A stretch of DNA of 32,000 nt from Bellilinea caldifistulae. GTDB lineage: Bacteria; Chloroflexota; Anaerolineae; Anaerolineales; Anaerolineaceae. Position 1 is the stretch's first letter; each line of letters begins with the position of its first letter. The stretch is taken from assembly GCF_001306055.1 (NCBI RefSeq), contig NZ_LGHJ01000019.1, positions 210,001 to 242,000 on the forward strand, given 5' to 3'. The position numbers and the translations under genes are program-made. Positions 7,496 through 32,000 of this stretch are shown here, piece after piece. Below the pieces are notes generated by a model. It was not told where the DNA came from. It did not search any database and was given only the letters and a program-made list of their open reading frames with translations.

Positions 7496-7601
7496 TTTTA
7501 TCGGTGCAAACCCTGTTCAAGTTCAGGCTTCAAGTGGCATGGAACTTGCATTTTATGCCATCAATCCCACCTGTTTTGATGGATGACCGGAAAATAGAAC
7601 C

Positions 7602-8915
7602 ATGAACTCAAATACCCAATCTCCCCAAACCTCCCGCCAGAAACTCGGTTTTCATTATTTCCCGGATACCCTCCATTACACAGAAAAAGACTTACAGCAA
7701 TGGTTGCCGTTGTTAATGGATTTGGGTGTGGGCTGGATGGTCCTCCGTACGGAAATCAACCGCGCTATTCCAGAGTATTTCATCAGTGGTCTGCTTAAAG
7801 CCGGTATCCAGCCGGTGATTCAATTCCCGGTCAGCCTGCAAAGCCCGCCCGATTTGAGGGCCGTTTCGCCGTTGGTGGAAGCCTATTCCGCTTGGGGCGC
7901 CGTCTTTCATCAATATTTTGACCGTCCCAACATTCATCAATCCTGGCCGGCCAACCAATGGGCTCAGCAAGATCTGGTCGAACGATTTTTGGATCGCTAC
8001 CTGCCGCTGGCGGCTTTGAGCATGGAAGCCGGTGCTTTTCCAATTTTTCCTCCTCTGGAACCGGGCGGTAACTTTTGGGATACGACCTTCCTGCGAGCTT
8101 CTTTACAGGCAATCGAGCGCCGAAAGGAATCTGCCCTACTCGATCGCTTGATCCTTGCCGTTTATGGCTGGACTTTTCAACATCCTTTGAACTGGGGGGA
8201 AGGCGGCCCGGAAAATTGGCCAGAAGCACGCCCTTACTTTACCCCGCCACACTCACAAGACCAGCGCGGTTTCCGGGCTTTCGATTGGTACAGTGCGATC
8301 AGCGAGGCTGTTCTTCAAAAACGCTGTCCGATGATTCTTCTTCAGGCAGGTTTGCCAGCTTCTCCTGAAAAACTTCTTTCAGGTCTTCAAAATACACCAG
8401 AAGTTCAGCAAAACCTTTTGGAAATCATCAACAGCCTGAATACATCTTCAAAAACACCATTGGAAAACAAACCCGCATCCCTTCATTTGCCAGAAGAAAT
8501 CATCAGCGTTAACTTCTGGTTGTTGAGCGCTGATCAAGGTACCCCATCTTACGCCTTTGCATGGTTTGAAGAATCTCAACCGGTTTCCAAAGCAGCCTCT
8601 CATCTTTGTCAGCTGAAAAATGTTCCAATCATTCGCCCGAACATTCATGGAATCCTTGATGAAGACTCTCTTCGAAAAGCGATTCGTCCCCTTCAGCATT
8701 ATCTTTACCTTGGGGAGAACAAAGAAGCCCACCTTGTGTCAGTTTTCCAAAAACACGCCGGTTTCATCTCGCAATACCATCCCACCATCGGTTTTTCACT
8801 GGATGAAGCCCGGTTGGCAAATCGCATTACCCTGGCAGTGACACCCGATCAGGTGCCCGAGGATATTTTGGTTGCCTTGCAAAAACAAGGCTGCCAGATT
8901 GACTGGTTGGAATGA
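7602..8915 (+). CDS. Hypothetical protein, possible TIM-barrel glycosidase-like N-terminal half
   Basis: 437-aa ORF filling the gap between the divergent SDR gene and ftsZ. I recognise no diagnostic motif. There is weak resemblance to the N-terminal part of the 10606..11724 product. Confidence 0.55.
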   Translation: MNSNTQSPQTSRQKLGFHYFPDTLHYTEKDLQQWLPLLMDLGVGWMVLRTEINRAIPEYFISGLLKAGIQPVIQFPVSLQSPPDLRAVSPLVEAYSAWGAVFHQYFDRPNIHQSWPANQWAQQDLVERFLDRYLPLAALSMEAGAFPIFPPLEPGGNFWDTTFLRASLQAIERRKESALLDRLILAVYGWTFQHPLNWGEGGPENWPEARPYFTPPHSQDQRGFRAFDWYSAISEAVLQKRCPMILLQAGLPASPEKLLSGLQNTPEVQQNLLEIINSLNTSSKTPLENKPASLHLPEEIISVNFWLLSADQGTPSYAFAWFEESQPVSKAASHLCQLKNVPIIRPNIHGILDEDSLRKAIRPLQHYLYLGENKEAHLVSVFQKHAGFISQYHPTIGFSLDEARLANRITLAVTPDQVPEDILVALQKQGCQIDWLE

Positions 8916-16102: not shown

Positions 16103-16687
16103 TCAGGTTTTACCTTTCAACACATCTGGCTTGAGCACCCCTATAAATGGAAGATTGCGGTATTTTTCATTGTAGTCTAAGCCGTACCCGACAACAAAAC
16201 GATCGGGCAGGTCAAACCCCTTATACTTGAGGGGAATATCAATCAAGCGGTGAGCTGGTTTGTTGAACAACACACACACCTCAAGACTGGCAGGATTGCG
16301 ATCCCGCAGACTGCGCAGCAGATAACCCAAAGTCAAGCCGGTATCAATCACATCCTCCACAAACAGCACATGTCGCCCATCAATCGGTATTTCAAGGTCC
16401 TTGATCAACCGTACCATCCCCCGTTGACGTGCTTCGGCAGAGTAACTGGCAACTGCCAGGAAATCCACCTCACTGGGTATAGTGATCACCCGCAGCAAAT
16501 CCGCCATCAGAAATAGCACTCCCTTAAGCACCCCCACCAGTACCGGATTTTTATCGGCATAATCTTGCGAAATCCGTTCTCCCAATTCAAGGACTTTCTG
16601 ACGAATCTGATCTTCCGTGATCAAAATTTCGCGAATATCACGACCGAGTTCGCCATACTTTGCCAGAATCGCATCATTCGTCATCAC
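16103..16687 (-). CDS. hpt: Hypoxanthine(-guanine) phosphoribosyltransferase, copy 1
   Basis: 194 aa. PRPP-binding motif VLFVEDVIDTGLTL, VGVLKGVLFLMADL and C-terminal FVVGYGLDYNEKYRNLP are all typical of Hpt. Confidence 0.92.
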   Translation of the reverse strand: MMTNDAILAKYGELGRDIREILITEDQIRQKVLELGERISQDYADKNPVLVGVLKGVLFLMADLLRVITIPSEVDFLAVASYSAEARQRGMVRLIKDLEIPIDGRHVLFVEDVIDTGLTLGYLLRSLRDRNPASLEVCVLFNKPAHRLIDIPLKYKGFDLPDRFVVGYGLDYNEKYRNLPFIGVLKPDVLKGKT

Positions 16688-17063
16688 TTCGTTTTTGAGC
16701 CTCCGTACCCTTTAACTGGTTAGCCTCATCAAACAGGCCGTATTTCACCATTAAGTCACGCATCTCACGCCGCTTAAGCAGCTTGATCTTAATATGCGGG
16801 TAGAGTTGATTCATCAACCGTATTTTCTTGTTTTTACGGGTGGACAATTGGGGTCTGAGCGTGGTCAGCTCGATGTACAAATCCTGTTCCGGCAGGTAAA
16901 AATCGGGGGAAAAGGCAAGGGTTACATTCCCTTTCTCGTCCCATTCCAGAGGAAAGGTATGCGGTTCATATTCCCAGCGGATTCCGTAAAAATCCAAAAT
17001 ACGGGCAAAAATTTCCTCTGCCGGGTGTGCGAAAACGGGTTTCTTTTGTTCATCCTGCGACAA
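16674..17063 (-). CDS. Hypothetical protein, possible PD-(D/E)XK nuclease-like fold
   Basis: 129 aa. Its stop overlaps the hpt start by 11-14 nt, which suggests an operon. SPDFYLPEQDLYIELTT...K resembles a D...E-x-K endonuclease-fold motif, but this is weak. Confidence 0.55.
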   Translation of the reverse strand: MSQDEQKKPVFAHPAEEIFARILDFYGIRWEYEPHTFPLEWDEKGNVTLAFSPDFYLPEQDLYIELTTLRPQLSTRKNKKIRLMNQLYPHIKIKLLKRREMRDLMVKYGLFDEANQLKGTEAQKRSDDE

Positions 17064-17088
17064 TGAAGGGACACCTCTGTTCTAAGGG

Positions 17089-17664
17089 TTAGCGGATGAT
17101 TTGTTCCGGTAAGCGATTCAATGCATGACAGATCATTTCAGCAGCCACTTCGCAACTGATTCTCCCCGTGTTGATCACCAGATGATACAAACAAGGATCA
17201 TTCCAATCTACCTGATAATATCGCGAAAGATACAGTTTTCGTGCCCGATCACTTGCCAATATTTGTGCTCGGGCAGCCTTGGGATAAACCTTCTTTTCCT
17301 CCACAATCCGCTGAACGCGGACTTCTTCATCTGCGACTACGCGCACATGAAACACTCGTGGGTGTCCTCTCAGGACAACCTGTCCTGCCCTGCCAATAAT
17401 AACCACCTTACCCGCATCGGCCAGTTCGTGCAGCACCTGGCTGACGGCATTTAAATAATCTTGTTGTTGTTGGCCGGTAGGATTTACTCCCAGCAACCCC
17501 AGTTCGTCAATCATCGCCAGCGCTACTTCAGGTGCGCCCGCCCGTAAAGCCGCCTGATTAATCAGATCTCGCCAGACAAGCTGAAACCCCATCCGCTCGG
17601 CAACCAGTTTACCAATCACCGAGCCCCAACTACCCATCTGGCGCGAGATTGTGACAACATCCAT
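17089..17664 (-). CDS. Cytidylate kinase-like family protein (Cytidylate_kin2-type)
   Basis: 191 aa. The N-terminus VVTISRQMGSWGSVIGKLVAERMGFQLVWRDLI matches the ITISRxxGSGGxxIGxxLAxxLG pattern of this family as I recall it. The P-loop-like GSGG reads GSWG here. Confidence 0.7.
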   Translation of the reverse strand: MDVVTISRQMGSWGSVIGKLVAERMGFQLVWRDLINQAALRAGAPEVALAMIDELGLLGVNPTGQQQQDYLNAVSQVLHELADAGKVVIIGRAGQVVLRGHPRVFHVRVVADEEVRVQRIVEEKKVYPKAARAQILASDRARKLYLSRYYQVDWNDPCLYHLVINTGRISCEVAAEMICHALNRLPEQIIR

Positions 17665-17749
17665 AACAAAATTATAGCATGTCCCCGTTTAAGTTCGTGG
17701 TATGATTCATTGGTCAATATTCATCCCCATCGTCAGTGAGGTGAGCACC

Positions 17750-18337
17750 ATGAACCCGCGGTTAAAATTCCCCTATGAATTTATTGGAGAAATCCTCATC
17801 ACTCAGGAACAAATCCAGCAGCGCGTTGCCGATTTGGGCGAACAAATCACCCAGGATTATCAGCATAGCGATAAACTGCTCTTACTGGGCTTGTTACGCG
17901 GCAGTGTGATGTTCATGACCGACTTGATGCGGCATATCCGCCGCCCAATGACGATGGATTTCATGTTGGTATCCTCTTACGCGGGTACAGAGTCCAGCGG
18001 GTTTGTGCGAATTGACGCCGACCATAAAACCAATATCTACGGCTGGGATGTCATCCTGATTGATGACATTGTGGACACGGGTTACACGCTTTATACCGTG
18101 CGCAAATTGTTACTGGAACGACAGCCCCGTAGCCTGAAAATTTGCGCACTGCTCGACAAAAAAGCCCGTCATAAAGTGGACATCCACATTGACTATCTCG
18201 GTTTTGAAATCCCGGATTATTTTGTGGTGGGCTATGGTCTGGATATTGACGAGAAGGGGCGCAATTTGCCTTATATCGCTTCGGTTGATCTGGAAAAGTA
18301 CAAAAAACTCTATCCGCCAGATGAAGGGAAAAAGTGA
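17750..18337 (+). CDS. hpt: Hypoxanthine(-guanine) phosphoribosyltransferase, copy 2 (diverged paralog)
   Basis: PRPP motif VILIDDIVDTGYTL, LGLLRGSVMFMTDL and FVVGYGLDIDEKGRNLP. I chose the ATG at 17750 because it follows GAGGTGA (17738-17744). The track start at 17702 adds 16 residues of unlikely sequence. Confidence 0.9.
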   Translation: MNPRLKFPYEFIGEILITQEQIQQRVADLGEQITQDYQHSDKLLLLGLLRGSVMFMTDLMRHIRRPMTMDFMLVSSYAGTESSGFVRIDADHKTNIYGWDVILIDDIVDTGYTLYTVRKLLLERQPRSLKICALLDKKARHKVDIHIDYLGFEIPDYFVVGYGLDIDEKGRNLPYIASVDLEKYKKLYPPDEGKK

Positions 18338-18343
18338 GGAGTT

Positions 18344-19465
18344 ATGAAAAAGAGAATCGGAGTATTGACCACCGGGGGCGATAGTCCCGGGATCAACGCT
18401 GCCTTGAGGGGATTGGGGAAGGCCGCCACCGGTGTGTACGGCATGGAAATCATCGGCTTTCAAGACGGTTTCAGCGGAATGGCACAGGGATTGACCGTCG
18501 AATTGGAAGGTTCGGCTTTTTCGGGTATTCTCACCACCGGCGGCACAATTCTGGGTACCAACCGGGACCGCCCCGATCGGGTGATCATTGATGGAGTTCC
18601 GCAGGATGCCACTTCCCAAATCCTGCAGAACTTTGACAAATTCAACCTTCATGCGCTGGTTTGCATTGGCGGCAGTGACGCCCAGGACAGTGCGTACTAT
18701 CTTATGCAGCGCGGTTTGAATGTAATCACCCTGCCGGTTACCATTGACAACGATTTACCCGGCACCGACACTTCGATTGGATTCGACACAGCCGTCGAGG
18801 TTGCCGCCGAAGCGATTGATCGTCTGCATAGCACCGCCATCAGCCATCACCGCATCATCATCGTGGAAATGATGGGACGCGAAACCGGCTGGTTAACTCT
18901 GGCGGCAGGAATTGCCGGCGGCGCAGATGTAATTCTCATCCCGGAAATTCCTTATCACACTGAAAAAGTCGCCGAAGCCATCCTAAAGCGCAGCCACAGT
19001 GGCAAGCGCTTTTCCCTCGTTGCCGTTTCGGAAGGTGCCATCTCTCAGGAAAGCGTGCGCTTCTTTGAAAAAGCACGTCTTGCCAACCGTCGTCTGCGCC
19101 AGGGCACAGAACAATCCGAAGTGGAACAGCGGTTGGAAGAGATTGAAAAACACGCCGCCGGAGATACCCTTCATCTGGCAAACCGATTGGAAGATTTCAC
19201 CAAACTGGAAACCCGAATCACCATTTTGGGCTACTTACAGCGTGGCGGTACGCCCTCGGCCACTGACCGGGTTCTCGCCACTCAACTAGGAACCGCCTGT
19301 GCTGCGCTCATTCAGGAAGGTGTTTTCGGCGTGATGGTTGGCACGCGCTCCGGAACAGTGGTCACGACACCGCTGGATCAGGTAGCCCATCAGACCAAAA
19401 CCGTCCCCCTTGATCATGCCTGGATTCAGGGAGCGCGGTTGGTAGGAGTCAATCTGGGGGACTAG
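18344..19465 (+). CDS. pfkA: 6-phosphofructokinase (PfkA family; phosphoryl donor uncertain)
   Basis: 373 aa. MKKRIGVLTTGGDSPGINAALRG, LPVTIDNDLPGTDTSIGFDTA, IVEMMGRETGWL and LGYLQRGG are canonical PFK blocks. Confidence 0.92.
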   Translation: MKKRIGVLTTGGDSPGINAALRGLGKAATGVYGMEIIGFQDGFSGMAQGLTVELEGSAFSGILTTGGTILGTNRDRPDRVIIDGVPQDATSQILQNFDKFNLHALVCIGGSDAQDSAYYLMQRGLNVITLPVTIDNDLPGTDTSIGFDTAVEVAAEAIDRLHSTAISHHRIIIVEMMGRETGWLTLAAGIAGGADVILIPEIPYHTEKVAEAILKRSHSGKRFSLVAVSEGAISQESVRFFEKARLANRRLRQGTEQSEVEQRLEEIEKHAAGDTLHLANRLEDFTKLETRITILGYLQRGGTPSATDRVLATQLGTACAALIQEGVFGVMVGTRSGTVVTTPLDQVAHQTKTVPLDHAWIQGARLVGVNLGD

Positions 19466-19522
19466 CCAGTCCCATACCAGTTTAGAATAAGACTGACGAC
19501 AACCTTTCATCAGAGAAGCGAA

Positions 19523-20305
19523 ATGAAACCGATCCGAGTGACCGTTTGTCAAATGCGCGATGATCCTCAAGGCCTGTCTGAAGACTGGACGGTTCTGGTC
19601 AATCATGTTCAACAACACAAAAGCGATCTGGTTCTGCTGCCGGAAATGCCTTTTGCCCCATGGGTGATGCTCGACAATCAGGTGTCCACCCAGCGCTGGA
19701 TGGAATTCGTCCGTCAGCATGATGAATGGATGCAACGGCTGCCTGAATTAAGCCCGGCGGTGGTGTTCGCAACTCGCCCCGCGATTCTCAACGGGCGCTG
19801 GTTGAACGAGGCATTCTTGTGGGATGCTCAAAGTGGCTACCGCGCCGTCCATCACAAAACTTATCTCCCCGATGAACCCGGTTTTTGGGAAGCCACCTGG
19901 TACGACCGCGGGCCAGTTCAGTTCATTCCCACAAACACCTGCTTTGGAAAGGTGGGATTTCTGGTTTGCACCGAAATCTGGTTCACCGAACACGCCCGTA
20001 ATTTTGCCCGTCAGGGGGTACGGATTTTACTTTCCCCTCGCGCAACCGAAAAGGCCACTACTGCCAAATGGGTGATGGGTGGGCGTGTTGCGGCCGTGAT
20101 GAGCGGCGCGTACTGCCTTTCCTCGAACCGCTGCGGCCCTTCGGGGGCCGGGTTTGATTGGGGCGGCAGCGGCTGGATCGCCGAACCGGATCAAGGCGAC
20201 TTACTCGCCACCACCAGTGATACTCATCCCTTCATCACGATTGAAATTGACCTCTCCAAAGCTGACCAAGCCAAACAGGGGTATCCGCGCTACGTTAAAG
20301 AATAA
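19523..20305 (+). CDS. Carbon-nitrogen hydrolase (nitrilase superfamily) protein
   Basis: 260 aa. The Glu-Lys-Cys triad is in the expected contexts: LVLLPEMPF, HHKTYLP and VGFLVCTEIWF. Confidence 0.85.
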   Translation: MKPIRVTVCQMRDDPQGLSEDWTVLVNHVQQHKSDLVLLPEMPFAPWVMLDNQVSTQRWMEFVRQHDEWMQRLPELSPAVVFATRPAILNGRWLNEAFLWDAQSGYRAVHHKTYLPDEPGFWEATWYDRGPVQFIPTNTCFGKVGFLVCTEIWFTEHARNFARQGVRILLSPRATEKATTAKWVMGGRVAAVMSGAYCLSSNRCGPSGAGFDWGGSGWIAEPDQGDLLATTSDTHPFITIEIDLSKADQAKQGYPRYVKE

Positions 20306-20393
20306 ATCCGGCACTTGATCGAATATTCATACCGCATGTCAGCGCAACTTGAAGATTATTTCTGGGTTTAACCCTGAGAGGTATAAACCTACC

Positions 20394-22055
20394 ATGGATC
20401 CATTAAAAATAGGCTCTCATACTCGCTTTAATTCCCCTCAAAATCTTTTCTGGTCCGGTGACACAGCCGCACTTTCCACGGATGTTGAAATCATTCGCCA
20501 AAGACTGTTATCCTTAGACTCACCCTTGTTGGTGGTAACTGACGGTCAGAATGTCTGGCTCACGGATGAGGGAACCATCCTGCCAGGGGAGAAAAACTCC
20601 ACCACCTCCTACCGCTGGCTGGCAACCCTGCCTCCTTCACCAATCGAATCGCTTGGTGATTCATCTTTTCAGGAATGGTACGGCTGCCGTTACGCTTATT
20701 ACAGCGGCGCCATGGCCAACGGGATTGCCTCCACCCGCCTGGTCATTGCCATGGGCAAAGCCGGTTTTCTGGCATCCTTTGGTGCGGCAGGTCTTTCCCC
20801 CGAACGGATCGAGGCGGCTATCCACGAAGTTCAAACTGCCCTGCCGCAAGGGCCGTATGCCTTCAACCTGATCAACAGCCCAAATGAACCCGCCCTGGAA
20901 CGTCGCGCGGCCGAGTTGTATGTCCAACACGGCATTCGCAGCGTGGAGGCTTCCGCTTATCTGGAAATTACCCCTGCCCTGGTGTACTACCGCGCCAACG
21001 GATTAATCAGTCAGCCGGACGGTACAATCCGCATTCAAAACCGGCTGATTGCAAAATTATCCCGTAAAGAAGTCGCCCGTCAGTTCATGCTCCCGGCCCC
21101 TGATGAGATCCTCAATCAATTGGTGCAGGAGAACCGATTGACCGAAACTCAGGCAAATCTCGCCCGCCGTGTTCCAATGGCCGACGACATCACCGTTGAG
21201 GCTGATTCGGGAGGACACACCGATAACCGCCCATTAGTGGGACTGCTCCCATCTATTCTGACCCTGAGGGATGAGATTCAAGATCAAATGCAGTACCCCG
21301 TTCCGATTCGAATTGGCGCAGCCGGGGGAATCAGCACACCTCAGGCAGCCCTGGCAGCGTTAATGATGGGGGCTGCTTATATTGTCACCGGTTCGGTCAA
21401 TCAGGCCTGTATTGAGGCCGGGGCATCCGAACACACCCGCCGCCTGCTCGCCCAGGCCGACATGGCGGATGTTACCATGGCACCTGCCGCCGACATGTTC
21501 GAAATGGGCGTCAAAGTCCAGGTTTTGAAACGCGGCACCATGTTTGCCATGCGGGCTTCCAAGCTCTACGAATTGTATTCCCGCTATCCATCCCTTGAAG
21601 CCATCCCCGTTGAGGAACTTCAAAAACTGGAAAAGACCGTTTTCAAGCGCCCAGTCGAAGAAATCTGGCAGGATACGGTGCGATTCTTCCAGCAGCGCGA
21701 TCCGCGTCAGTTAGAAAGAGCCGAGAAAGATCCGCGTCATAAAATGGCGCTGGTCTTTCGCTGGTACCTGGGACTGTCTTCCCGCTGGTCAAACAGCGGT
21801 GAAAAGGGCCGCGAGATGGACTACCAGATCTGGTGCGGGCCGGCAATGGGAGCTTTCAACGAATGGGTGCGGGGGACCTATCTTGAAAAGCCTGAAAATC
21901 GTTCTGTCGTAGATATTGCTCTCCACATCCTGACCGGGGCGGCATATTTGCAGCGTGTCCGTTTGCTGAACGCCTACGGCGTCCAAACAAGCCCTGATCT
22001 GGAGCGTTACCAACCACTCCAGCCATTGACAGAGTCTATCCTCGAAAAGGCTTGA
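20394..22055 (+). CDS. pfaD: PfaD-family trans-acting enoyl reductase (FMN, 2-nitropropane-dioxygenase-like) of PUFA/polyketide synthases
   Basis: SFQEWYGCRYAYYSGAMANGIASTRLVIAMGKAGFLASFGAAGL plus the ADDITVEADSGGHTDNRP and GAAGGISTPQA blocks are the hallmarks of PfaD-type ER. I chose the ATG at 20394 because it follows GAGAGG. The track start at 20349 is a TTG. Confidence 0.9.
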   Translation: MDPLKIGSHTRFNSPQNLFWSGDTAALSTDVEIIRQRLLSLDSPLLVVTDGQNVWLTDEGTILPGEKNSTTSYRWLATLPPSPIESLGDSSFQEWYGCRYAYYSGAMANGIASTRLVIAMGKAGFLASFGAAGLSPERIEAAIHEVQTALPQGPYAFNLINSPNEPALERRAAELYVQHGIRSVEASAYLEITPALVYYRANGLISQPDGTIRIQNRLIAKLSRKEVARQFMLPAPDEILNQLVQENRLTETQANLARRVPMADDITVEADSGGHTDNRPLVGLLPSILTLRDEIQDQMQYPVPIRIGAAGGISTPQAALAALMMGAAYIVTGSVNQACIEAGASEHTRRLLAQADMADVTMAPAADMFEMGVKVQVLKRGTMFAMRASKLYELYSRYPSLEAIPVEELQKLEKTVFKRPVEEIWQDTVRFFQQRDPRQLERAEKDPRHKMALVFRWYLGLSSRWSNSGEKGREMDYQIWCGPAMGAFNEWVRGTYLEKPENRSVVDIALHILTGAAYLQRVRLLNAYGVQTSPDLERYQPLQPLTESILEKA

Positions 22056-22094
22056 AAGGCTTGCCTCAACAGGACGACAAGCCCCGGGTCCATT

Positions 22095-22862
22095 TCATTC
22101 GCTCAGTTGAATTTCCCGCAAGCGAATAGATGGAATTTCACCGGTTTGTAGTTGAACCGCCAGCGTGACCATGTAGTTGCCGCGTTGCTGCCACCAGCCA
22201 ATTAACCGATGGCCTTCTTCCGGCAAATTGCTGCGGTATTCCAAAATCCGCCAGTCTCCCAAATTCGTTGCCATGCCGGGAAACACCTGAATCAGGTGAG
22301 TATCCACAGCCAACCCGAGCCGCAAAGCCTTCAGGGCGGCCTCTTTGGCGCTCCACAATAATGTGGTACGTCCCGCCTGTGCCTCTGTGGGGGCTGAAAT
22401 TACCCATTCGATTTCTTCACCGGTGAAGTAATCCTGCAAGAACGCAGGATGCCGTTCCTCAATCCATTCCAGGTCAATCCCAATCCAGATACCCTCATTT
22501 GCGGTATAGGCTGCCGCCGCTCGTTCGCTGCGGTGAGAGATGCTCAGACAACCAGCCAGCGGTTCACCACCCACTTTAACCAGCGGATAGCCGTGATGGT
22601 GATTTTCAACCGAGATTTCAGCCATCGTCTTTCCGGCAAGAGCCGGAACAACACTCAGCAGCATCCGTTTGGCCGTCCAGCGGCCGCTCAACCATTCGCT
22701 GCGCCGCTTGGGGAATCGAATTGTTTCCAGGAAACGCTGTTCCTCGTGAGACAACCAGCTGGTATCAAAAATGGTGAGGTCTCCCCTCTGCGGGAAAACC
22801 TCACCGATGCACCAATCTAAATTGATCTGGCGCTGCCTTTTAGAGAGTGGCATCTGTCCCAT
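22095..22862 (-). CDS. Sfp-type 4'-phosphopantetheinyl transferase (PfaE-like)
   Basis: 255 aa. It has the GIDLEWIE (GxD-I/L-E) and WSAKEAALKA (W/FxxKEAxxK) motifs and the N-terminal FxxxRRSEWLSGRWxAK block. The start (ATG at 22862 or 22853) lies inside the last codons of the megasynthase gene. Confidence 0.85.
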   Translation of the reverse strand: MGQMPLSKRQRQINLDWCIGEVFPQRGDLTIFDTSWLSHEEQRFLETIRFPKRRSEWLSGRWTAKRMLLSVVPALAGKTMAEISVENHHHGYPLVKVGGEPLAGCLSISHRSERAAAAYTANEGIWIGIDLEWIEERHPAFLQDYFTGEEIEWVISAPTEAQAGRTTLLWSAKEAALKALRLGLAVDTHLIQVFPGMATNLGDWRILEYRSNLPEEGHRLIGWWQQRGNYMVTLAVQLQTGEIPSIRLREIQLSE

Positions 22863-25800
22863 TGACCAGTAATTTCATCGGTTTAAGCAGTGCCGCATCT
22901 ACGGTGTAGGGCAATGCCACAGTCCGGTAATCCTTCACTTCCAGGTAGACCATGCCGTTCTGATCCACCAGCCTGGCATCAAATGCCAGACTGCCATCAC
23001 TCGATCGGCTGGGAATGACCTCGGCAAACAATGGCTTGTCCTCCTGCGGCACACTGCGATGCAGCACCAGTTCGCCAATTGAGCGCGGTAATGCCAATGT
23101 GCCGGTCGCTCCCGCTTCCCAGATGCCAGCAGTCTGCAAAATCGCTTCCAGCAAAATCGGCATGGTTACCAACGAGACCGGCTGCTCGGTGATAGCCGGC
23201 AGGGATTCACGGACTTTGCCCAACACCTTCCCCTCCACCCGTTGGACGCCTTCCAGGACTTGGAAAGAAGGGCCGTGGAAGTAGAGACGATAGATCTCAT
23301 CGCTGGCAACGGTGTAAGCGCCGTTCCAACCGGGCGGTTGAACTTTAACCGATGCAGATTTTTCCGTCTTTGGGGTCAAATAAACTTTTCCGGCAAAGTG
23401 CTGGATGACTTCATTCGGACGAGTTTTAGCAACCAGGGTCGATTCAAGGCTGACATAAGCCACCAAACCACTCGCCTCGCGGATTACTCTGGCTTTCCAG
23501 GTTACCCGGCGCGGTTCGTTGCGGTAGAACTTGAAGGGAGCCAGGAATTGAACATCTTCCAGACGTTCAACTGCAAAGCCGACTTTTTCAGCACCCAACA
23601 CTGAAGCAACATGCTTCGCCGCCGCTGAAAATCCTTCAATTCCCATCACCCCCGGCAGCAAGGGGATTCCGTTCAAAGCATGGTCTTTGAGAAACGGCTG
23701 GTCATTCGGATTCAATTCGGCTTCCAGCAGCACACCGGTTTGCAGGTCAAAGCCGTTCACTGCGCTGAGCATGACATGCGCCGGGCTACCTTCGCGTAAA
23801 GCCTGATTAGCGGCTTCCAGGTTCAAACCGCTCTCCTTGCGGAGCGGTTTTTCCAGAACACCCAACGAACCGGAAACTACCACCTCACTGACCGGCTCAT
23901 TCCCTACCAGTTCTTCATAAACAAAGCGGGCTGCCTGCTTCGGAGGCATCTGGTCAATCCCGCCCATTTCCATTAATTGAGGAATATATCCGCGACTCGC
24001 CATCCCCACCTGCGCCCAGGCGCTCCAATCAATGGTGACCACCCGCATTTCCGGGTGCAGACCACGCAGGTGAGAAGCAGCCTTTGCCAGCCAGTCATTG
24101 GCAGCACTGTAATCGGTCTGACCGGAATTGCCAAACCTGCCGGCAACCGAACCAAACAGCAACACCTGCTTTGGCAATCTATCCGCTGTTTGAAGGGCTT
24201 TGTAAAGATTGAAGAAACCTCCGGCTTTAACCTGAATAGTCGTACGGAATTCTTCCTCCGGTTTGAGATGCAGCTTTCGGCTGCGTTCAATGCCGGCTGC
24301 ATGAATCAGGACATCCACGCGACCATTCTCCTCGACAATCTGACCAATGGTCTCCCCTACCTGATGAGGATCGGTAACATCACATAACCGGTAGACCACG
24401 CTGGCTCCAAGTGAACGGGCAGTCTGAATGGCATCCAGAATGCCAGCCATACGCTCCAATGCAGCCAGTTTCTCTTCCACCTGCGCAGGGGAAGGTTTTT
24501 GTCCGTTGGCGCTCATTTCTCTGAGCAGGTCTTTTTTCAAGCCATCCCGATCCGCTTTTAATCGCTGGAGGGCTGCATCCTGAGGATCGGCTAACGGACT
24601 GCGTCCCAGCAGGTAGAAGATGCCCTGCGTTCGCTGTGCCAGATCCGTAAGGATTGGCGCAACAATACCGCCAGCCCCGCCGCTGATAATCATTACCGGT
24701 TTCTCAGGTAGAGTTGATTGGACCGGATTGTTTCCTTCTTCTTCAAAGAGGGCAATGCTAAAGCGCTGATCGCCCTCCCAGCCGACTTCAACCACAGAGG
24801 CATCGCCGAGCGTCTCTCCGACCAGGCGGGCAGCAATCTGGCTATCATTTGCGCCTGCTTCAAAATCTACCACCTTGACCAACGCGTTTGGCCGTTCACG
24901 GCTAATAGCTTTGGCAAAGCCGGAAATCAAACCGCCCGAAACATTCTTAGCCGCAGTTACGCAGGTTCCATGCAGGCCGCCCATGCGGGTTGCACAGATC
25001 AAGAAAGGCTCACCTTCCACCATCCGGAGCAAGTGATAGAGGCGTACCAGGCGATTATCTACCAGAGATTGCCAGACACGAACATCCTGTTCCGCCAGTG
25101 ATGGCTCATGGTTCAAACCGACCAGGTAATACAAACCCTGAACCCTGCCAGTGCTTTGGAAGGAGGCAACTTTTTCCTGCCATTCCTCGGGCGTCTGGGA
25201 GGAATCCAGAGTCAAAATTTGGACTTTGCGGGCGCGCAACCTGCGGGCAAGGGAATCGGCTGTTTTGCCTTCATCACTCACCAGAATCACCCTGCTGTTT
25301 TCATCTAGAGTGACTCCGCTCGGCAGACACAAATCCAATTTCGGCAGCAGCACCGGTTTTGGAACCCTTCGGCGGATGAGAATTTGCGTCTCTGCCGGCT
25401 CTTCGGTTGGTTTAGGCTCTTCAACGGTCTCCATGGCAACCGGAGCTTGCACCTCTTTGGTTGACAGCGCCTGCGCCGTCGGCTCTTTTGTTGAAACGGA
25501 CTCAACAACAGGGGTAGCGGTGACAGGTTTTTCTTCGGAAACGGGCAGTTCCTCGGTGCTGGTCGCCTTCCCATTCGTTGATAACGCCTCAACCATGAAG
25601 CCGATGACTTTTTTCAAGGTGTTGTAATCCACCAACCTGAGGTCTTCCCGCCGCGGGATGTTGTAGTGGGTGCGGATAGTCGCAAACAGTTCCGCCTGTT
25701 TTACCGTGTCAATTCCTAAATCGGCTTCCAGGTCCAAATCCAAATCCAGCATTTCAACCGGATAGCCCGTCTTTTCACTGACAACCGACAGCACGTAGGT

Positions 25801-28800
25801 TTTAATTTCCTCTTCATCCACACCGGAGATGGAAGTCCGTGTTGGTGTTGAAGAAGGCTGTTCGCTCTCAGCCTGGACTGGTGCCGATACTTCGGCAGGT
25901 TCAACCGCCTTGCTGACCGGCTGGGCAACCGTTGTAGCAGCCGGTTGAGACTGACTGACAACCCCGCTGCTCAAAGCGTCCACCATGAAGTCAATCACCT
26001 TCTCCAGGGTGTTGTAATCCACCAGCCGCAGGTCTTCCCGCCGCGGGATGTTGTAGTGGGTGCGGATGGTAGCAAACAATTCAGCCTGTTTGACGGTATC
26101 AATCCCTAAATCGGCTTCCAGGTCAAGCCCCAGGTCGAGCATTTCAACCGGGTAACCGGTCTTTTCACTGACCACTGAAAGCACATATTCTTGAATGGCT
26201 GCCCGGTCAACGGCCGGGGCTGCAGAAAGAGACGGGACTGATTGAGCCACCTGCATAGGTATCGGCTGAGGTTCAGACTTATCCGAAGCAGGCATGGCTA
26301 CATCTTCAGCCGGTTGAGCCTGAGCAGCTATCGCAGCCGCATTTTCCGCCATGAAGGAAATCACTTTGTTGAGGGTGTTGTAATCAACCAGCCGCAAATC
26401 TTCCCGTCTGGGGATGTTGTAATGCGTTCGAATTGCAGCAAAGATTTCAGCTTGTTTCACCGTATCAATGCCCAAATCGGCTTCCAGATCCAGATCCAAA
26501 TCCAGCATCTCGACCGGGTAACCCGTTTTTTCACTGACCAGATTGAGAACAAATTCTTTGATCTCATCTACCTTGACCGGTGATCTGCCGGCGGGCGAGG
26601 AAGTTCCCAAGACAACAGGCTGGAGTTTTTCCTTTTCTTCAACCGCTTCAACAGGATGAGCGGCAGGCTGCGGACTCGGCACACCGACCGGTTGAGATTG
26701 CGGCAATTGATCCGGCTGCTCTGCCCAGCGGGTAGGTCCCTGCCCATACTGCCAGCGGGATTTAGCCGGCGGTTTAACCGGCGGTCCCATGTGGCGGATC
26801 CGGAGAGTGCGTTTTTCCACCTCCAATTCGGCTTTTTCGTAACCCGCAATTTCCGCCAGCCATTGCTGATAGACTGGTTGATTGATCCTTTCCTTTACAT
26901 GGGCAACCACCCGGAATAACGCCATGGCAATTTGCGAGCCAAAACCGGCCCCCAACCGCAGAGCATAACTGACCGGGTATTCACCGCCTTTTGATAGGTT
27001 CAAATCACCCAGATCCGGGTCGGGTTCAAAATTCTCATCATAATTGGCAATCGGCGGCACAATTCCATGTTCCAGGGCTTTGATCGCCACAACATCTTCA
27101 ATCCCCACGCCCATTGCATGACCGGTGTACCCTTTGGTATTTGCGATGATCACCTGATTGGCTTTATCGCCAAAGGTGTATCGGAGTGCCTGAATCTCCG
27201 CGGAAGCCGAACCGCCTCTGGCGGGGGTGTAGGTTTCGTGAGACATGAACATGGTTTGAGCGGCAATTTCTTCCCGGCGAATACCAAAACGCTGCTCGGC
27301 CGTGCTGATCAGGCGATTCATGATTTCCCGCACATGGGGAACATCCAGGCGGGTTCCATGATAAGCGCTATTGGCGATATCCGTCGCCAACACCTCACAA
27401 ATCGCCCGCATGCCGCGTTCTCGCACCGCATCTTCGGACTCAACTACCAGTGCGGCCGCCCCCATTCCCATGATCATCCCATTCCGCCGGCGGTCAAACG
27501 GCAAAGCAGCCATACGCAGATTACCTTCTGTGGTAGCCGCACCAGAAACGAACAAGCCGGTTCCAATCCACTCCGCCAGCGGACCGCCGGTCACATCGTC
27601 ACCCGCAATGATGACGACTCGGCGGCAACGTCCGGCGCGAATCCAGTCTTCAGCAACCGCAATCGCATGGGTTGTGGTGGCACAGGCAGCGTTGACATGC
27701 GTATTCGGGCCGCGTGCGCCAATATATTCAGCAAATTGCGAATGCCCCATTGAAAGCACCCGGAAGACAAAACGGCGATCAAAATGGTAATCCATCTCTT
27801 TGAGCCTTGTTTCCAGTGCTTTGATTCGCTCGCGCAGCAGGTTTCTCACCCCCGTCTGATCCACTGCGACCAGACTGAGAATGTTGCGCACTTCTTCTAA
27901 CTGCTTCTCAACTTGCTTGTATTCGGAATAACGCGACATCTCTTCCGCCATTTCATCCAGCCCCGGGAAGGCAGAAGCAAAGATCACACCGGTTTCATCA
28001 GCCAGCGCTTCTGGCAAGCGCCAGCGGTCGGGGAGATAAGTGCCTTTACTGGTCTTACGATAGGCCATTACCAGGGGAATTCCGGCATCCCTCAAAGCTT
28101 CAATGCCGGCAGCCACTGCGAGTTGGGTGGTAATATCCCAGGCATCCGCACGCTCTACCGGAATGCCGAACTCTTCCACCGGATCAAATTGCCCGCGCTG
28201 TCCACCCAACTTTACGGTCAAATCCACGCTTTCAATCGGGATCATCTGGGCGCCGGCTTCGCTTTTTTCCAAACGGGTTGGCCGCTTTTCCACCATTCGC
28301 TTGCGCAATTCTTCCGGCAAAGGTTCAATGCGGATTTCGCCTTTTAAAATACTCAGGATATTCTCATCATTGAAAACGGGTTTTGATCTGCCCGGCAGCC
28401 CCAAGCCTGCACCGCTGATCACGACCGAACCCGTCAATGGCAGGCGACCGTCGTTGACCGGTGTCTGTACTTCAACCATCGGTTTTACAGACGCGCTAAT
28501 CGCAACCGGGGGGACTGATTTCACACTTACCTCATCAATAGCGGATTTTTGAGTGGACACTTGTGCTGGCGTTTCAAGTTTCTGTTCTCGACCGGGCGCA
28601 ATTCCCGCTGCCAGCAGACCACAAACTGCTTCGTTAAAACTGACCACTGCACCTTTTCGGGGATGATTGGTTGCCAGCAGCATGACACCCGAGCGGTCTT
28701 TGAAAATATCATTTGCCAGAGCGTTCAATACCCGTTTCGGCCCAATCTCGACAAAGACTCTTGCTCCGGCATTATAGAGCGTTTCCATGCCTTTAATAAA

Positions 28801-31395
28801 TTGCACTGGCGAGGCAACCTGCTTTCCCAAAATATCCAGAATCTGTTCCCGGCTGGTGGGGTAAAACTCGCCGGTCACATTGGCTGCCACCGGAATCTTG
28901 GGGGATTGCAGGTTCATACGCGCAATAACCTGTTTGAGGGGCTCGCTTGCCGGGGCAACAATTTTTGTGTGGAACGCATGAGAGACAGAGATGCGGGTGG
29001 CCTGGTAACCGGCTTTTTCAAAAGCCTCTAAGGCAGCCTGAATACCTGCCGTGCTGCCACCCACGACCGATTGCATGGGGCTATTGATGTTGGCGATGAC
29101 CACATATTCCGAGATTTCCTGTAAGATCCGTTCAACCTCTTGAATGGGAGCAGAAACTGCCACCATACCACCATTATCCGCCACCGAGACTTTTTTCATC
29201 TCACGGCCGCGTGCCGAAACGACTTCCAAAGCCTCCGCAAAAGTCAATACGCCGGATGCCACCAGTGCGGCATATTCCCCAAGGCTGTGACCAATCACAA
29301 AATCGGGGGAAAACCCGAATTTCTCCATCAACCGCAGCAATGCGACATTGGCCGTCAACATCGCTGGCTGAGTGATCGCCGTATCCCGTAATGCGGCTTC
29401 GGCTTGTTTTAACGATTCTTCGTCCCCCTCTACATAAATGTAACTGGTTAAGGGACGCCCCAAAATGGGTGTCATGATCGCATCAGCCTCTTTGAAGGTA
29501 TCCGCTACAAGTGGTTCGGCTTCGCACAGGTCTTTGAGCATGTTGACATATTGAGATCCCTGCCCGGGGAACATAAAGGCAACTTTACCAGCCTTCCCGC
29601 TGCCCCGATAAACCCCCTGGGCAGTCAGCGCCTGCCAGGCATTTGGGGCTTCATTGTCGAGCGTTTTAAGCGCTTTTTCTCCCCGTGAAATCAACTCCTC
29701 AACCGATGAGTAGTCAATCACCAATCGCTCGGGCTTGGTTACCATCGCCGCATCTGGCAATTGGGAAGGTGGTAATTGACCCTGGCGGGCATTTTCTAAA
29801 ATTTGAGCCAGTTGTTCCTTTAACTGCTGGCTGTTTTCCCCACTCAGGAAGGCGATTCCGCGATAAGGCACGGGCAAGGTCGAAGAAACCGCTTCCGCCA
29901 CGACTTGCGGAGCAGGACTTTCCACCTGCGCCGCTTTTCTTTCCGGCACCGCAAACACCTTTGTTTCAGAAGTCAGCAGCCCCGGCACCCATTCTTCCAG
30001 CACCATGTGAAAGTTGGTGCCGCCAAAACCAAACGAACTGACTCCAGCCCGGCGGATTTCTCCAGGGGCATTTTCCCACGGTCGGGTTTCGGTATTGACG
30101 TAAAAGGGAATGCGGTCGAAATCAATATTTGGGTTGGGTTTATGGAAATTCACAGAGGGCGGCAAAACTTTTTCGTACAAGGCGTACATGGCTTTCAGGA
30201 CACCCGCCGCCCCGGCCGCACTCTTCAAATGACCAATATTGGACTTGACCGATCCCATCGCAATGCTGCGCGGTGGCAGACCAAACTTTCCAAAAACCTC
30301 GTTGAGAGATTGTGTCTCCACCACATCCCCAACCCGCGTGGAGGTGCCATGGGCTTCAATCAAACCCACACTGGCAGGGTTTACGCCGGCATTCTTCCAG
30401 GCCCGTTCAATCGCACGCTGCTGACCAAGAGGATTGGGAGCCGTAATCCCTTTACCTTTGCCATCGCTGCTGGCGCCAACCCCGCGGATAACCGCATAAA
30501 TTTTATCCCCGTCCCGTTCAGCATCGGCCAGCCGCTTTAACAAAAAGAGCACAGCCCCTTCGCCCATGACGAATCCATTCGCCCCTTCAGCGAACGGCCG
30601 TGAACCGTCCGGCGAAAGCGCCCCAATCTTACAGAATTTTACGAACCCCTCAACCCCCATATTGCGGTCCACACCGCCCGTCAAAACCGCATCAAACTGG
30701 TGATTGACCAGCCCGTCAATAGCGGCTTGAACCGCTGCATGAGAAGAAGCACAGGCAGCGTCTGTGATGAAATTTGGGCCAGAAAAATTGAACACATTGG
30801 CAATTCGGCCGGCAATCACGTTGCCCAGTTCACCCGGCATGGTATCTTCGGTAATATTGCTCACCCTTTTGCGGATATTTTGCGTCATTCCCTCCAGCAG
30901 CGCCTTCTGCACTTCTGGTGGTAGTTGGGCAAATGCTTCCACTTCTTTAAGGGCTTCCATATAATCCGGCAGACGAATTCGTAGGCTGGTTATGTAATGG
31001 TTTTCACCCGCCAGCGCATTGCCAATAATCACCGCCGTACGTGTTCCATCAAGGGGTTTCTGCGGGTAACCGTAATCTAAAAGAGCCTGCCGCGCTACAC
31101 TGATGCCCCACTTTTGGCTTTCATCCATCACCGCCAGAACGTTTGGTGGAATGGGGATCCCCCATTTCAGCGGCTCGAAGGGATAAGATCGTACCCACGC
31201 CCCAATTTTGGTATAAGTTTTATCCGGTGCTTTTGGATCAGGATCATAATACAAATCCACCCGCCATCGATCGGGCGGAACCTCGGTCACTGAATATCGC
31301 CCTTGCTTGATATTGTTCCAGAATGCAGGCGCATCTTCAGCATCCGGTAAAATTGCCCCCACTCCGACAATTGCAACGGCTCTAGGATCAAACAT
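22840..31395 (-). CDS. PfaA-like iterative type I FAS/PKS megasynthase, 2851 aa, domain order KS-AT-KS-ACP-ACP-ACP-KR-DH
   Basis: A single uninterrupted ORF preceded by AAAGGAGAG. Domain calls are listed as separate features and rest on active-site motifs read from the translation and verified on the DNA. Confidence 0.95.
   Translation of the reverse strand: [2851 protein letters not shown]
22891..23778 (-). other. Domain DH: polyketide-synthase-type (double hot-dog) dehydratase (aa ~2540-2835)
   Basis: HxxxGxxxxP motif [10 protein letters not shown] with His2572 (codon 23680-23682, CAT, checked). [11 protein letters not shown] is GYxYGPxF-like. LLEAILQ sits where PKS DH domains have DxxxQ/H, so the acid residue here is Glu. 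Confidence 0.8.
23986..25380 (-). other. Domain KR: ketoreductase with N-terminal structural subdomain (aa ~2006-2470)
   Basis: Rossmann motif [23 protein letters not shown], and the catalytic region [21 protein letters not shown] (Tyr2429). Confidence 0.85.
25570..25818 (-). other. Domain ACP3 (aa ~1860-1942), Thr1897 at the expected Ser position
   Basis: [62 protein letters not shown]. Thr codon ACG at 25705-25707. Confidence 0.8.
25960..26208 (-). other. Domain ACP2 (aa ~1730-1812), Thr1767 at the expected Ser position
   Basis: [62 protein letters not shown]. Thr codon ACC at 26095-26097. Confidence 0.8.
26326..26574 (-). other. Domain ACP1 (carrier-like domain 1, aa ~1608-1690), Thr1645 at the expected Ser position
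   Basis: [62 protein letters not shown]. Thr codon ACG at 26461-26463. Confidence 0.8.
26905..28434 (-). other. Domain KS2: second, apparently catalytically complete ketosynthase (aa ~988-1497)
   Basis: Starts [12 protein letters not shown]. Cys1238 in VNAACATT (codon 27682-27684, TGT, checked). His in MSHETYTP and [15 protein letters not shown] follows the Cys. About 250 residues precede the Cys (I recall roughly 160 for FabF-type KS, not counted here), including a predicted helical, charged insert at aa ~1150-1205. Confidence 0.8.
28711..29586 (-). other. Domain AT: malonyl-CoA:ACP acyltransferase (aa ~604-895)
   Basis: [16 protein letters not shown] with Ser704 (codon 29284-29286, AGC, checked). 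SHAFHT is the HAFH motif associated with malonyl specificity. Confidence 0.9.
29998..31386 (-). other. Domain KS1: PfaA-type ketosynthase (aa ~4-466)
   Basis: N-terminus [22 protein letters not shown]...DRW and the PfaA-like insert [17 protein letters not shown]. Active-site Cys215 in TDAACASS (codon 30751-30753, TGT, checked). His in [11 protein letters not shown] and [10 protein letters not shown]. Confidence 0.9.
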
Positions 31396-31750
31396 TTTTC
31401 TCTCCTTTGAAAGAAGGTGTTTTTTTTCAGGTATCGCTAAAATGGATAAACCATGTCTTAGAGAGACACGGCAAATTTACTAACAGACTGGATTGCTATT
31501 CAGAAGGATGAGAAGGATGAGAGTACAGGTACACAACCTTCCAATTTCTCCGATCGAACAAACCCTATCAAGACAGCCCTCCAAAAATCGCCTTTTCTGG
31601 TTGATAAACTCTGAACGTAATAACCCCTTTACAGACAGGGAGTTACGTAAAAAGAACGGTTTTTCCAACATATCAAACAGGTGGTATCAAGAAATTTACA
31701 CGTGGTATACTCAATCTGTCTGATTTTCTCACAAACGGATGCAAATAACC

Positions 31751-32000
31751 ATGATGGAGTTTATTCAACACTTGACCCCTCCCGAACAATTGGAATGGGA
31801 ATCGCTGAATTCCCCTCTTGCCATTCAAAACTTTTTGGACAGCTTACCCTATATCGGTGAAGAGCGGAACCGTTCCCCCTTGAATGTTCTGCGTGACCGC
31901 CAATGCCACTGCCTGGATGGGGGTTTATTGGCTGCATTAGCCCTCAGCCGCCTCGGATTTCCCCCGTTGCTAATGGATCTCGTACCTGAACCCGGAAAAG
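31751..32000 (+). CDS. Transglutaminase-like (papain-fold) domain protein, N-terminal fragment running off the window end
   Basis: The ATG at 31751 opens a frame that stays open to 32000: MMEFIQHLTPPEQLEWESLNSPLAIQNFLDSLPYIGEERNRSPLNVLRDRQCHCLDGGLLAALALSRLGFPP. The R-x-C-x-C...LLAALALSRLGFP block resembles the catalytic-Cys region of transglutaminase-like proteins. The family call is tentative. Confidence 0.45.
   Translation, partial: MMEFIQHLTPPEQLEWESLNSPLAIQNFLDSLPYIGEERNRSPLNVLRDRQCHCLDGGLLAALALSRLGFPPLLMDLVPEPGK

Follow-up and report, generated by a model that had tools for sequence, protein, structure and literature searches.

A FabF-Related Second Ketosynthase as a Probable Condensing Domain in the Type R Megasynthase of Bellilinea caldifistulae

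A stretch of 32,000 nucleotides of the Bellilinea caldifistulae genome (contig NZ_LGHJ01000019.1, positions 210,001 to 242,000; hereafter the window) carries the gene of a PfaA-like megasynthase in which a second ketosynthase (KS) domain, KS2, is placed between the acyltransferase (AT) and the acyl carrier protein (ACP) domains, the first ketosynthase, KS1, being N-terminal and a ketoreductase (KR) and a dehydratase (DH) C-terminal. By its architecture, the synthase belongs to the "Type R" secondary lipid synthases, a class defined by Shulse and Allen in 2011 (PLoS One 6:e20146; PMC3098273). KS2 is probably a second working condensing domain of this synthase, sharing the elongation cycles with KS1. 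As judged from its sequence and modelled fold, it derives from a FabF-type β-ketoacyl-ACP synthase II (KAS II) and has kept the full Cys-His-His-Lys machinery. An earlier note on this DNA, made from the sequence alone, had left room for the architecture to be a named cluster type that is already characterised; the name exists (PMC3098273), the characterisation does not, as in the literature searched nothing beyond the 2011 catalogue was found and no Type R characterisation or product report turned up.

Position, Fold and Catalytic Residues of KS2

Comparison of the whole protein with Pfam gives a second, weaker set of ketoacyl-synthase matches between the AT and the carriers. When residues 960–1540 are scanned alone, PF00109 (5.5e-15), PF02801 (1.1e-06) and PF08545 are found, together with the fabF model TIGR03150 (3.3e-43, 147.9 bits, the equivalog cutoff of 493.75 not being reached), and the same region retrieves solved FabF structures from the PDB sequences at an E value of 2e-26. 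The KS-AT-KS order proposed in the earlier note is thereby borne out, and the coordinates it gave for the second KS, 26905–28434, agree with those of the KS2 core (Table 1).

KS2 starts at about residue 990 (VVISGAGLGLPG) and, at about 505 residues, is about 100 residues longer than FabF owing to three insertions, which were placed by a three-way alignment of KS2, E. coli FabF and KS1. Approximately 245 residues precede the active-site Cys, versus 163 in FabF; the earlier estimate had been about 250. The 55-residue insertion begins directly after ASAFPG, the equivalent of FabF GSGIGG, where FabF has a short loop and KS1 a shorter insertion. In the AlphaFold model of KS2, built from 35 homologues (pLDDT 85.7, pTM 0.87), this insertion, previously described as charged and helical-looking, is indeed formed by two long helices, whereas the two smaller insertions are predicted to be extra β-hairpins. 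A Foldseek comparison of the model with the PDB yields in its top 50 only FabF, mitochondrial KAS and actinorhodin KS structures, with target-normalised TM-scores of 0.79–0.86 versus FabF, and the matches span essentially the full 410-residue FabF fold. KS2 is followed by a conserved element of high pLDDT with five invariant residues (R544, W553, L554, E566 and L572 in the numbering of alignment A1).

The catalytic residues of KS2 are all found where FabF has them. Cys1238 in the motif VNAACATT aligns with FabF Cys163, His1386 in SHETYTP with His303, and Phe1485 with the oxyanion-hole Phe400, while Lys1421 and His1426 are the equivalents of Lys335 and His340. The block RVVIIAGDD, already recognised in the earlier note, aligns with FabF VMVAGGAEKA. 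Cys1238, His1386, Lys1421, His1426 and Phe1485 are invariant in all 82 loci compared and also across the 35 aligned homologues; Glu1387, Arg1393 and Asp1266 are likewise invariant in the 82 loci. Thus the earlier description of the domain as a full Cys-His-His ketosynthase and not a Cys-less chain-length factor (CLF) stands.

These residues bear on the alternative that KS2 is a structural, CLF-like partner of KS1 that sets the chain length without condensing. Heterodimers of KS and CLF are established in PfaC and in type II polyketide synthases (PKSs), the active-site loop of KS2 is atypical, and the corresponding domain of the Type R synthases was labelled CLF by Shulse and Allen (PMC3098273). 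In the control CLFs, i.e., the Persicobacter PfaC CLF and the Nostoc PfaB-family KS, the active Cys is replaced by Glu and the catalytic His by Ala or Phe, and both His303 and Phe400 have been lost, whereas in KS2 the Cys, both His, the Lys and the oxyanion Phe are retained throughout the 82 loci, which come from at least five phyla. Moreover, KS2 does not fall within the clade of the CLFs and has no BLASTP similarity to the PfaC CLF. A structural partner is hence a rather improbable role for KS2, and at the level of its residues the CLF label of 2011 is wrong.

Relation of KS2 to Known Ketosynthases

As references, the PfaA KS, PfaC KS and PfaC CLF encoded by a Persicobacter megaplasmid (PfaBC), the HglE-like, PfaB-family and modular KSs of a Nostoc plasmid, and FabF and FabB of E. 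coli were used. The best BLASTP match of KS2 outside its own family is FabF (31% identity, 96 bits, E 3e-24), followed by FabB (57 bits) and the Persicobacter PfaA KS (52 bits); no similarity to the Persicobacter PfaC KS or PfaC CLF is detected. In a bootstrapped neighbour-joining tree KS2 forms a clade with 100% support outside the group comprising the PfaA, HglE, modular and PfaC KSs and the CLFs. The idea of a relocated PfaC KS or CLF was rejected on these two results. The possibility that KS2 is a duplicate of KS1 was also rejected, the two sharing merely 26% identity (E of about 1e-6 to 2e-5). KS1 itself is 43–44% identical to the Persicobacter PfaA KS and the Nostoc HglE KS, and its catalytic residues are invariant in 73–75 loci.

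According to the earlier note, the GDD block and the region preceding the Cys resemble the KS of microbial type I fatty acid synthases (FAS-I), and the synthase could be a chimera of polyunsaturated fatty acid (PUFA) synthase and FAS-I parts. In that case KS2 would derive from a FAS-I or FabY-like KS. The KSs of FAS-I and FabY do have long regions before the Cys, and in yeast FAS2 the active Cys is followed by IVGGYDD, reminiscent of the AGDD of KS2; the likeness stops at that DD dipeptide. A query with the yeast FAS2 fragment returned an exact match to 2UV8 chain A, and solely with this query, never with KS2, did FabY surface (PDB 4CW4, 639 residues, matching segment 283–312). No FAS-I or FabY chain is present among the best 60 PDB sequence matches of the whole KS2, of its profile or of the 100-residue segment with the Cys and GDD, among the nine matches obtained with the 248 residues preceding the Cys at E values up to 10, or among the top 50 fold matches, which are KAS II, mitochondrial KAS and actinorhodin KS structures. 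FabF is first in every one of these searches and, as mentioned above, the best relative outside the family, so that the chimera is to be regarded as extremely unlikely.

Active-Site Peculiarities and the Division of Labour

In the mechanism proposed here, the AT would load malonyl units onto the tandem ACPs, and KS1, of the PfaA/HglE type, and KS2 would each perform decarboxylative Claisen condensations in different subsets of the iterative cycles, the cycles being allotted according to chain length or the β-carbon state. The KR and the PKS-type DH would process each β-keto group and, in the Anaerolineaceae version, a PfaD-type trans enoyl reductase (ER) encoded next to the synthase would saturate the enoyl intermediate. 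The system would thus be iterative and fully reducing and, as no FabA-type isomerase was found in the window, would be expected to yield a long acyl chain, saturated or with simple modifications, rather than a PUFA. Whereas the order of the domains, the modelled fold of KS2, the conservation of its residues, the spread of the family and the neighbouring genes are observed directly, the activity of KS2, the divided labour, the allotment of cycles to either KS and the kind of product are inferred from them. A division of labour between the two KSs, already suggested in the earlier note, is plausible since both appear catalytically complete. A precedent for it is provided by the PUFA synthases, in which early condensations are carried out by the PfaA-type KS and later ones by the KS-CLF pair (PMC13291983).

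Several observations weigh against an ordinary share of KS2 in elongation. Its active site is non-canonical: Glu1387 takes the place of FabF Gly304, Tyr or Phe that of Ser306, and Ser that of Gly402. The loop with the first catalytic His, HETYTPARGGSASAE, which is the same in all phyla sampled, reads TPARGGSAS versus TPAGD in FabF, i.e., it contains a three-residue insertion with the invariant Arg1393 and has lost the equivalent of Asp311, a residue present in every other KS and CLF compared. The family-specific Glu1387 and Arg1393 may alter the Lys-Asp-Glu network there, and an active site of this kind could catalyse something other than plain elongation. Additionally, no release domain was identified in the synthase. 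Finally, the place of FabF Ile108 is taken in KS2 by Phe1143. The I108F mutation reportedly limits FabF to short chains, and the Phe thus hints at a priming or early role, opposite to the late role expected from the analogy with the PfaC KS-CLF pair; the helical insertion beside Phe1143 could, instead, lengthen the pocket.

If the role of KS2 were indeed confined to priming or the early cycle, it would convert malonyl-ACP to acetyl-ACP or, like FabH or FabY, condense a short starter with malonyl-ACP, and all later elongation would be left to KS1. Phe is found at the Ile108 position in 81 of the 82 loci, the I108F mutant of FabF, of which there is a structure (PDB 4LS6), reportedly has an acyl pocket narrowed to short chains, and Pfam reveals no separate starter-loading domain in the synthase. 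On the other hand, the helical hairpin starts right after this Phe and may reshape the pocket, in which case the analogy with FabF may fail; FabY (PDB 4CW4) is found neither in the best 60 sequence matches nor in the top 50 fold matches; and decarboxylating KSQ and CLF domains normally lack the Cys that is invariant in KS2. A priming enzyme is therefore considered an unlikely reading, and a share of KS2 in the elongation cycles is preferred. With two complete KSs on one polypeptide, Type R synthases are a compact system in which the partitioning of iterative cycles between ketosynthases can be studied.

Threonine-Type Carrier Domains

All three ACPs of the window synthase have Thr (Thr1645, Thr1767 and Thr1897) at the canonical position of the phosphopantetheine-bearing Ser, and in an alignment to solved ACPs these residues fall on the phosphopantetheinylated Ser. 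The Thr in the motif ADLG[IV]DTVKQA occurs in all 258 domains taken from the window together with 81 related loci, as well as in 59 of 59 motifs from the protein matches (317/317 in total), whereas the ACPs of the Persicobacter PfaA and the Nostoc HglE, retrieved by the same search, have Ser (ADLGIDSIK). No naturally occurring carrier protein of the Thr type was found described in the literature searched, and the paper of 2011 on Type R is silent on the Thr. The phosphopantetheinyl transferase (PPTase) encoded next to the synthase has the motifs SISHRS, GIDLE and WSAKEAALK of an ordinary Sfp-type enzyme.

It is possible, and is put forward only tentatively, that KS2, together with the ACPs of the Thr type and their dedicated PPTase, defines a self-contained, orthogonal lineage of type I fatty acid synthases, widespread in Chloroflexota, Acidobacteriota and other phyla, in which condensation would be shared by a KS of the PfaA type and a rewired FabF-derived KS and the carriers would be phosphopantetheinylated on Thr. 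Thr-linked carriers, if confirmed, would be of greater novelty than the question of KS2.

In a sub-clade of Anaerolineae, one to four extra ACPs are located between KS1 and the AT, an uncommon position for carriers, giving the order KS1-ACPn-AT-KS2-ACPn-KR-DH (loci L005, L007–L011, L013–L019, L021 and L022; e.g., L009, positions 8057–8600, and L022, positions 7388–8500). The idea of two ancient ACP classes, one for each KS, was discarded: in the ACP tree the domains sort by genome, and the extra ACPs are lineage-specific copies.

Distribution and Conservation of the Family

A search of 5.8 billion proteins with KS2 gave more than 1000 matches. The best 120 of them are 52–93% identical to the query and come from Chloroflexota, Acidobacteriota, Actinomycetota, Gamma- and Deltaproteobacteria, and Gemmatimonadota, the closest (93%) being encoded by a metagenome-assembled genome of Bellilinea. 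When a single genome of each species was scanned, at least 578 relatives were confirmed. The order KS1-AT-KS2-ACPn-KR-DH is present in every one of the 80 fetched loci long enough to show it, which represent Chloroflexota, Acidobacteriota, Actinomycetota, Myxococcota and Calditrichota; the synthase of Nonomuraea gerenzanensis has the same order. The nearest locus, L001 of Anaerolineaceae UBA9135, is 96–98% identical to the window in KS1, AT and KS2. Thus several hundred bacterial species carry such a synthase, and many of them, members of Anaerolineae, Caldilineae and Acidobacteriota, are abundant in soil and wastewater.

Across the phyla KS2 is 54–66% and KS1 59–65% identical, and the KS1 and KS2 trees mirror each other in shape. 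The comparable conservation and the mirrored trees indicate that KS2 has been under purifying selection within the synthase since the family arose. In the plasmid collection the Nonomuraea synthase is the sole member of the family (56%), the next matches being FabF-like genes with identities of at most 29%, a gap which shows that the family is sharply bounded. A tblastn search with the window's own domains revealed no extra KS within 10 kb in the 80 related loci. Stand-alone KS2 proteins were also considered, as there are matches of 500–1000 residues on long contigs; the one examined turned out to be a frameshifted fragment of a large gene. In locus L081 (ENA contig_37811, 162 kb, a long-read metagenome) frameshifts break the synthase into about 15 short called genes, and splitting of this type probably explains why many KS2 matches resemble stand-alone proteins of that size.

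The Synthase Locus and its Neighbourhood

The features of the locus are listed in Table 1. The ATG of the megasynthase gene is directly preceded by an AGGAGA Shine-Dalgarno sequence. The protein scores 1040 bits against TIGR02813, the PfaA model (cutoff 1010.1), its best stretch spanning only model positions 9–916. The HAFH motif of the AT is a malonyl-specific signature, and the DH is of the PKS type and not a FabA-type isomerase. The ER shares 59.6% identity with a Nostoc protein annotated as a PfaD-family member. Searching the larger open reading frames of the 32-kb window with Pfam revealed no pfaB, no pfaC (KS-CLF-DH2) and no FabA-type DH. The remaining genes of the window are of the housekeeping type (MutS, FtsZ, GH57, phosphofructokinase and phosphoribosyltransferases).

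Table 1. Coordinates of the Type R synthase locus features in the window (aa, residues of the megasynthase).
Feature	Position	Strand	Basis
PfaA-like megasynthase gene, 2851 aa, KS1-AT-KS2-ACPx3-KR-DH	22840..31395	-	ORF (open reading frame) list, translation, Pfam, TIGR02813
KS1, aa 5-470, PfaA/HglE-type; Cys215, His349, Lys384, His389	29986..31383	-	PF00109, PF02801, PF16197
AT, aa 604-907, GHSLGE and HAFH motifs	28675..29586	-	PF00698 1.7e-44; fabD TIGR00128 7.8e-68
KS2 core, aa 993-1497, thiolase-fold ketosynthase with three insertions relative to FabF	26905..28419	-	Pfam, NCBIfam, alignment, AlphaFold, Foldseek
Stretch with two smaller KS2 insertions, about aa 1034-1056 and 1113-1130, predicted extra β-hairpins	28006..28296	-	Alignment; model strands 81-94, 149-167
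KS2 two-helix hairpin insertion, aa 1146-1201 (55-residue), LDEMAEEMSRYSEYKQ...KALETRLKEM	27793..27960	-	Alignment; DSSP helices, model residues 187-216, 222-242
KS2 active-site Cys1238 codon	27682..27684	-	FabF Cys163 alignment; Cys in 82/82 loci
KS2 active-site loop H1386-E-T-Y-T-P-A-R1393	27217..27240	-	Site table, alignment, 82/82 conservation
KS2 Lys1421 and second catalytic His1426, NTKGYTGHAMG	27118..27135	-	Alignment with FabF Lys335, His340; invariant
Conserved post-KS2 element, aa 1498-1540, helix and β-hairpin	26776..26904	-	Alignment A1, model
Three tandem ACPs, each ADLGIDTVKQA	25588..26583	-	PF00550 (three stretches), tblastn, alignment to solved ACPs
ACP Thr codons ACG, ACC, ACG	26461-26463, 26095-26097, 25705-25707	-	Codon reading
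KR, aa 2235-2461	24013..24693	-	PF08659 1.2e-26
PKS-type DH (PS-DH), aa 2550-2829; H-ALNG-IPLLP = HxxxGxxxxP motif	22909..23748	-	PF21089, PF14765
Sfp-type PPTase gene, 23-nt overlap with megasynthase gene end	22095..22862	-	PF01648 1e-16
PfaD-type trans ER gene, convergent with PPTase gene	20349..22055	+	PF18328, PF03060, PF21607

Upstream of the synthase a divergent gene (31750–32000, plus strand) runs past the end of the window; it is kept only in the four closest relatives, L001–L004, and its L004 homologue, of which 219 residues were scanned, has no Pfam match.

Clustering of the neighbouring genes of the 80 loci revealed a PPTase gene near the synthase in 44 related loci. The convergent downstream PfaD-type ER occupies the same position in 18 of the 80 loci, all from Anaerolineaceae (L001–L004, L007–L009, L012–L019, L021, L022 and L035; compared with L023–L078 and L082). 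In 44 loci, none of which belongs to the ER-bearing Anaerolineaceae, and also in Nonomuraea, a gene for an acyl-CoA dehydrogenase (ACAD) with a C-terminal extension lies upstream of the synthase. The ER and the dehydrogenase never co-occur within 10 kb, and this mutual exclusion suggests that they serve the same enoyl-reduction step and have replaced each other as non-orthologous enzymes. Both the reductase swap and the universal Thr of the carriers are leads to unusual enzymology. In 11–13 acidobacterial loci the dehydrogenase gene is adjoined by genes for the α and β subunits of the electron transfer flavoprotein and for a membrane Fe-S CCG protein (EtfD-like); the acidobacterial loci with upstream additions are L055, L056, L062, L064–L067, L070, L074–L076 and L078.

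Genes of acetyl-CoA carboxylase (ACC), namely biotin carboxylase, biotin carboxyl carrier protein and carboxyltransferase, are found in 15–18 loci (e.g., L012, L022, L025 and L049), between the synthase and PPTase genes or just after them, and are missing from the window. In Nonomuraea gerenzanensis (L082) the ACAD, synthase, ACC (positions 16664–22117) and PPTase genes stand in one row. The presence of ACC genes beside the synthase points to a malonyl-CoA supply of its own. It is also worth mentioning that six of the acidobacterial loci contain a gene of a wax ester synthase/diacylglycerol acyltransferase (WS/DGAT), through which the product might be off-loaded into wax esters or acylglycerols.

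Comparison with Known Systems

FabF (KAS II) is the nearest relative of KS2 by both sequence and fold and has the same Cys-His-His-Lys-Phe set. It is, however, a stand-alone enzyme of about 410 residues, whereas KS2 is embedded in a much larger protein, and where FabF has HGTSTPAGD, KS2 has HETYTPARGG. The KSs of fungal and CMN-group (Corynebacterium, Mycobacterium and Nocardia) FAS-I, as well as FabY of P. aeruginosa (4CW4), share with KS2 the long region before the Cys and the DD dipeptide after the post-Cys strand; beyond these, the listed similarity comprises nothing more than the general features of thiolase-fold KSs.

The KS-CLF pair of PfaC, known from Persicobacter PfaBC and from Moritella ORF10 (PDB 6RIW), resembles KS2 in constituting a second condensing unit for a PfaA-based iterative synthase. 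It differs in being located on a separate protein, where it adjoins FabA-type DH domains, and in that its CLF lacks the Cys; the Cys segment of KS2 matches 6RIW with an E value of 0.0036 and FabF with 1e-9. The canonical PUFA synthase, PfaABCD, includes PfaC with its KS-CLF and the FabA-type DH/isomerase needed for cis double bonds, which the window does not encode.

The system closest to the window synthase is the Type R itself. As catalogued in 2011, it comprises one pfaA homologue, arranged as KS-MAT-CLF-ACP(3-6)-KR (MAT, malonyl acyltransferase), and a downstream PPTase; its members were found in Roseiflexus, Koribacter, Solibacter and Elusimicrobium, sometimes with ACC genes nearby, and the product was uncharacterised (PMC3098273). 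The window likewise has a single pfaA homologue with this domain order, three ACPs and a PPTase gene directly downstream, and it lacks the genes of pfaB, pfaC and the FabA-type DH. The occurrence in Chloroflexi and Acidobacteria is also shared. A protein from Roseiflexaceae, P0012, matches 97% of the KS2 query with 59% identity, and loci of Chloroflexales, Bryobacteraceae and Terriglobia have the same architecture as the window synthase. Unlike the 2011 listing, the window synthase ends in a PS-DH, and its locus adds the convergent PfaD-type ER and is without the upstream acyl-CoA dehydrogenase and ACC genes. The middle domain, called a CLF in 2011, differs as well, its Cys-His-His-Lys set being invariant in the 82 loci compared.

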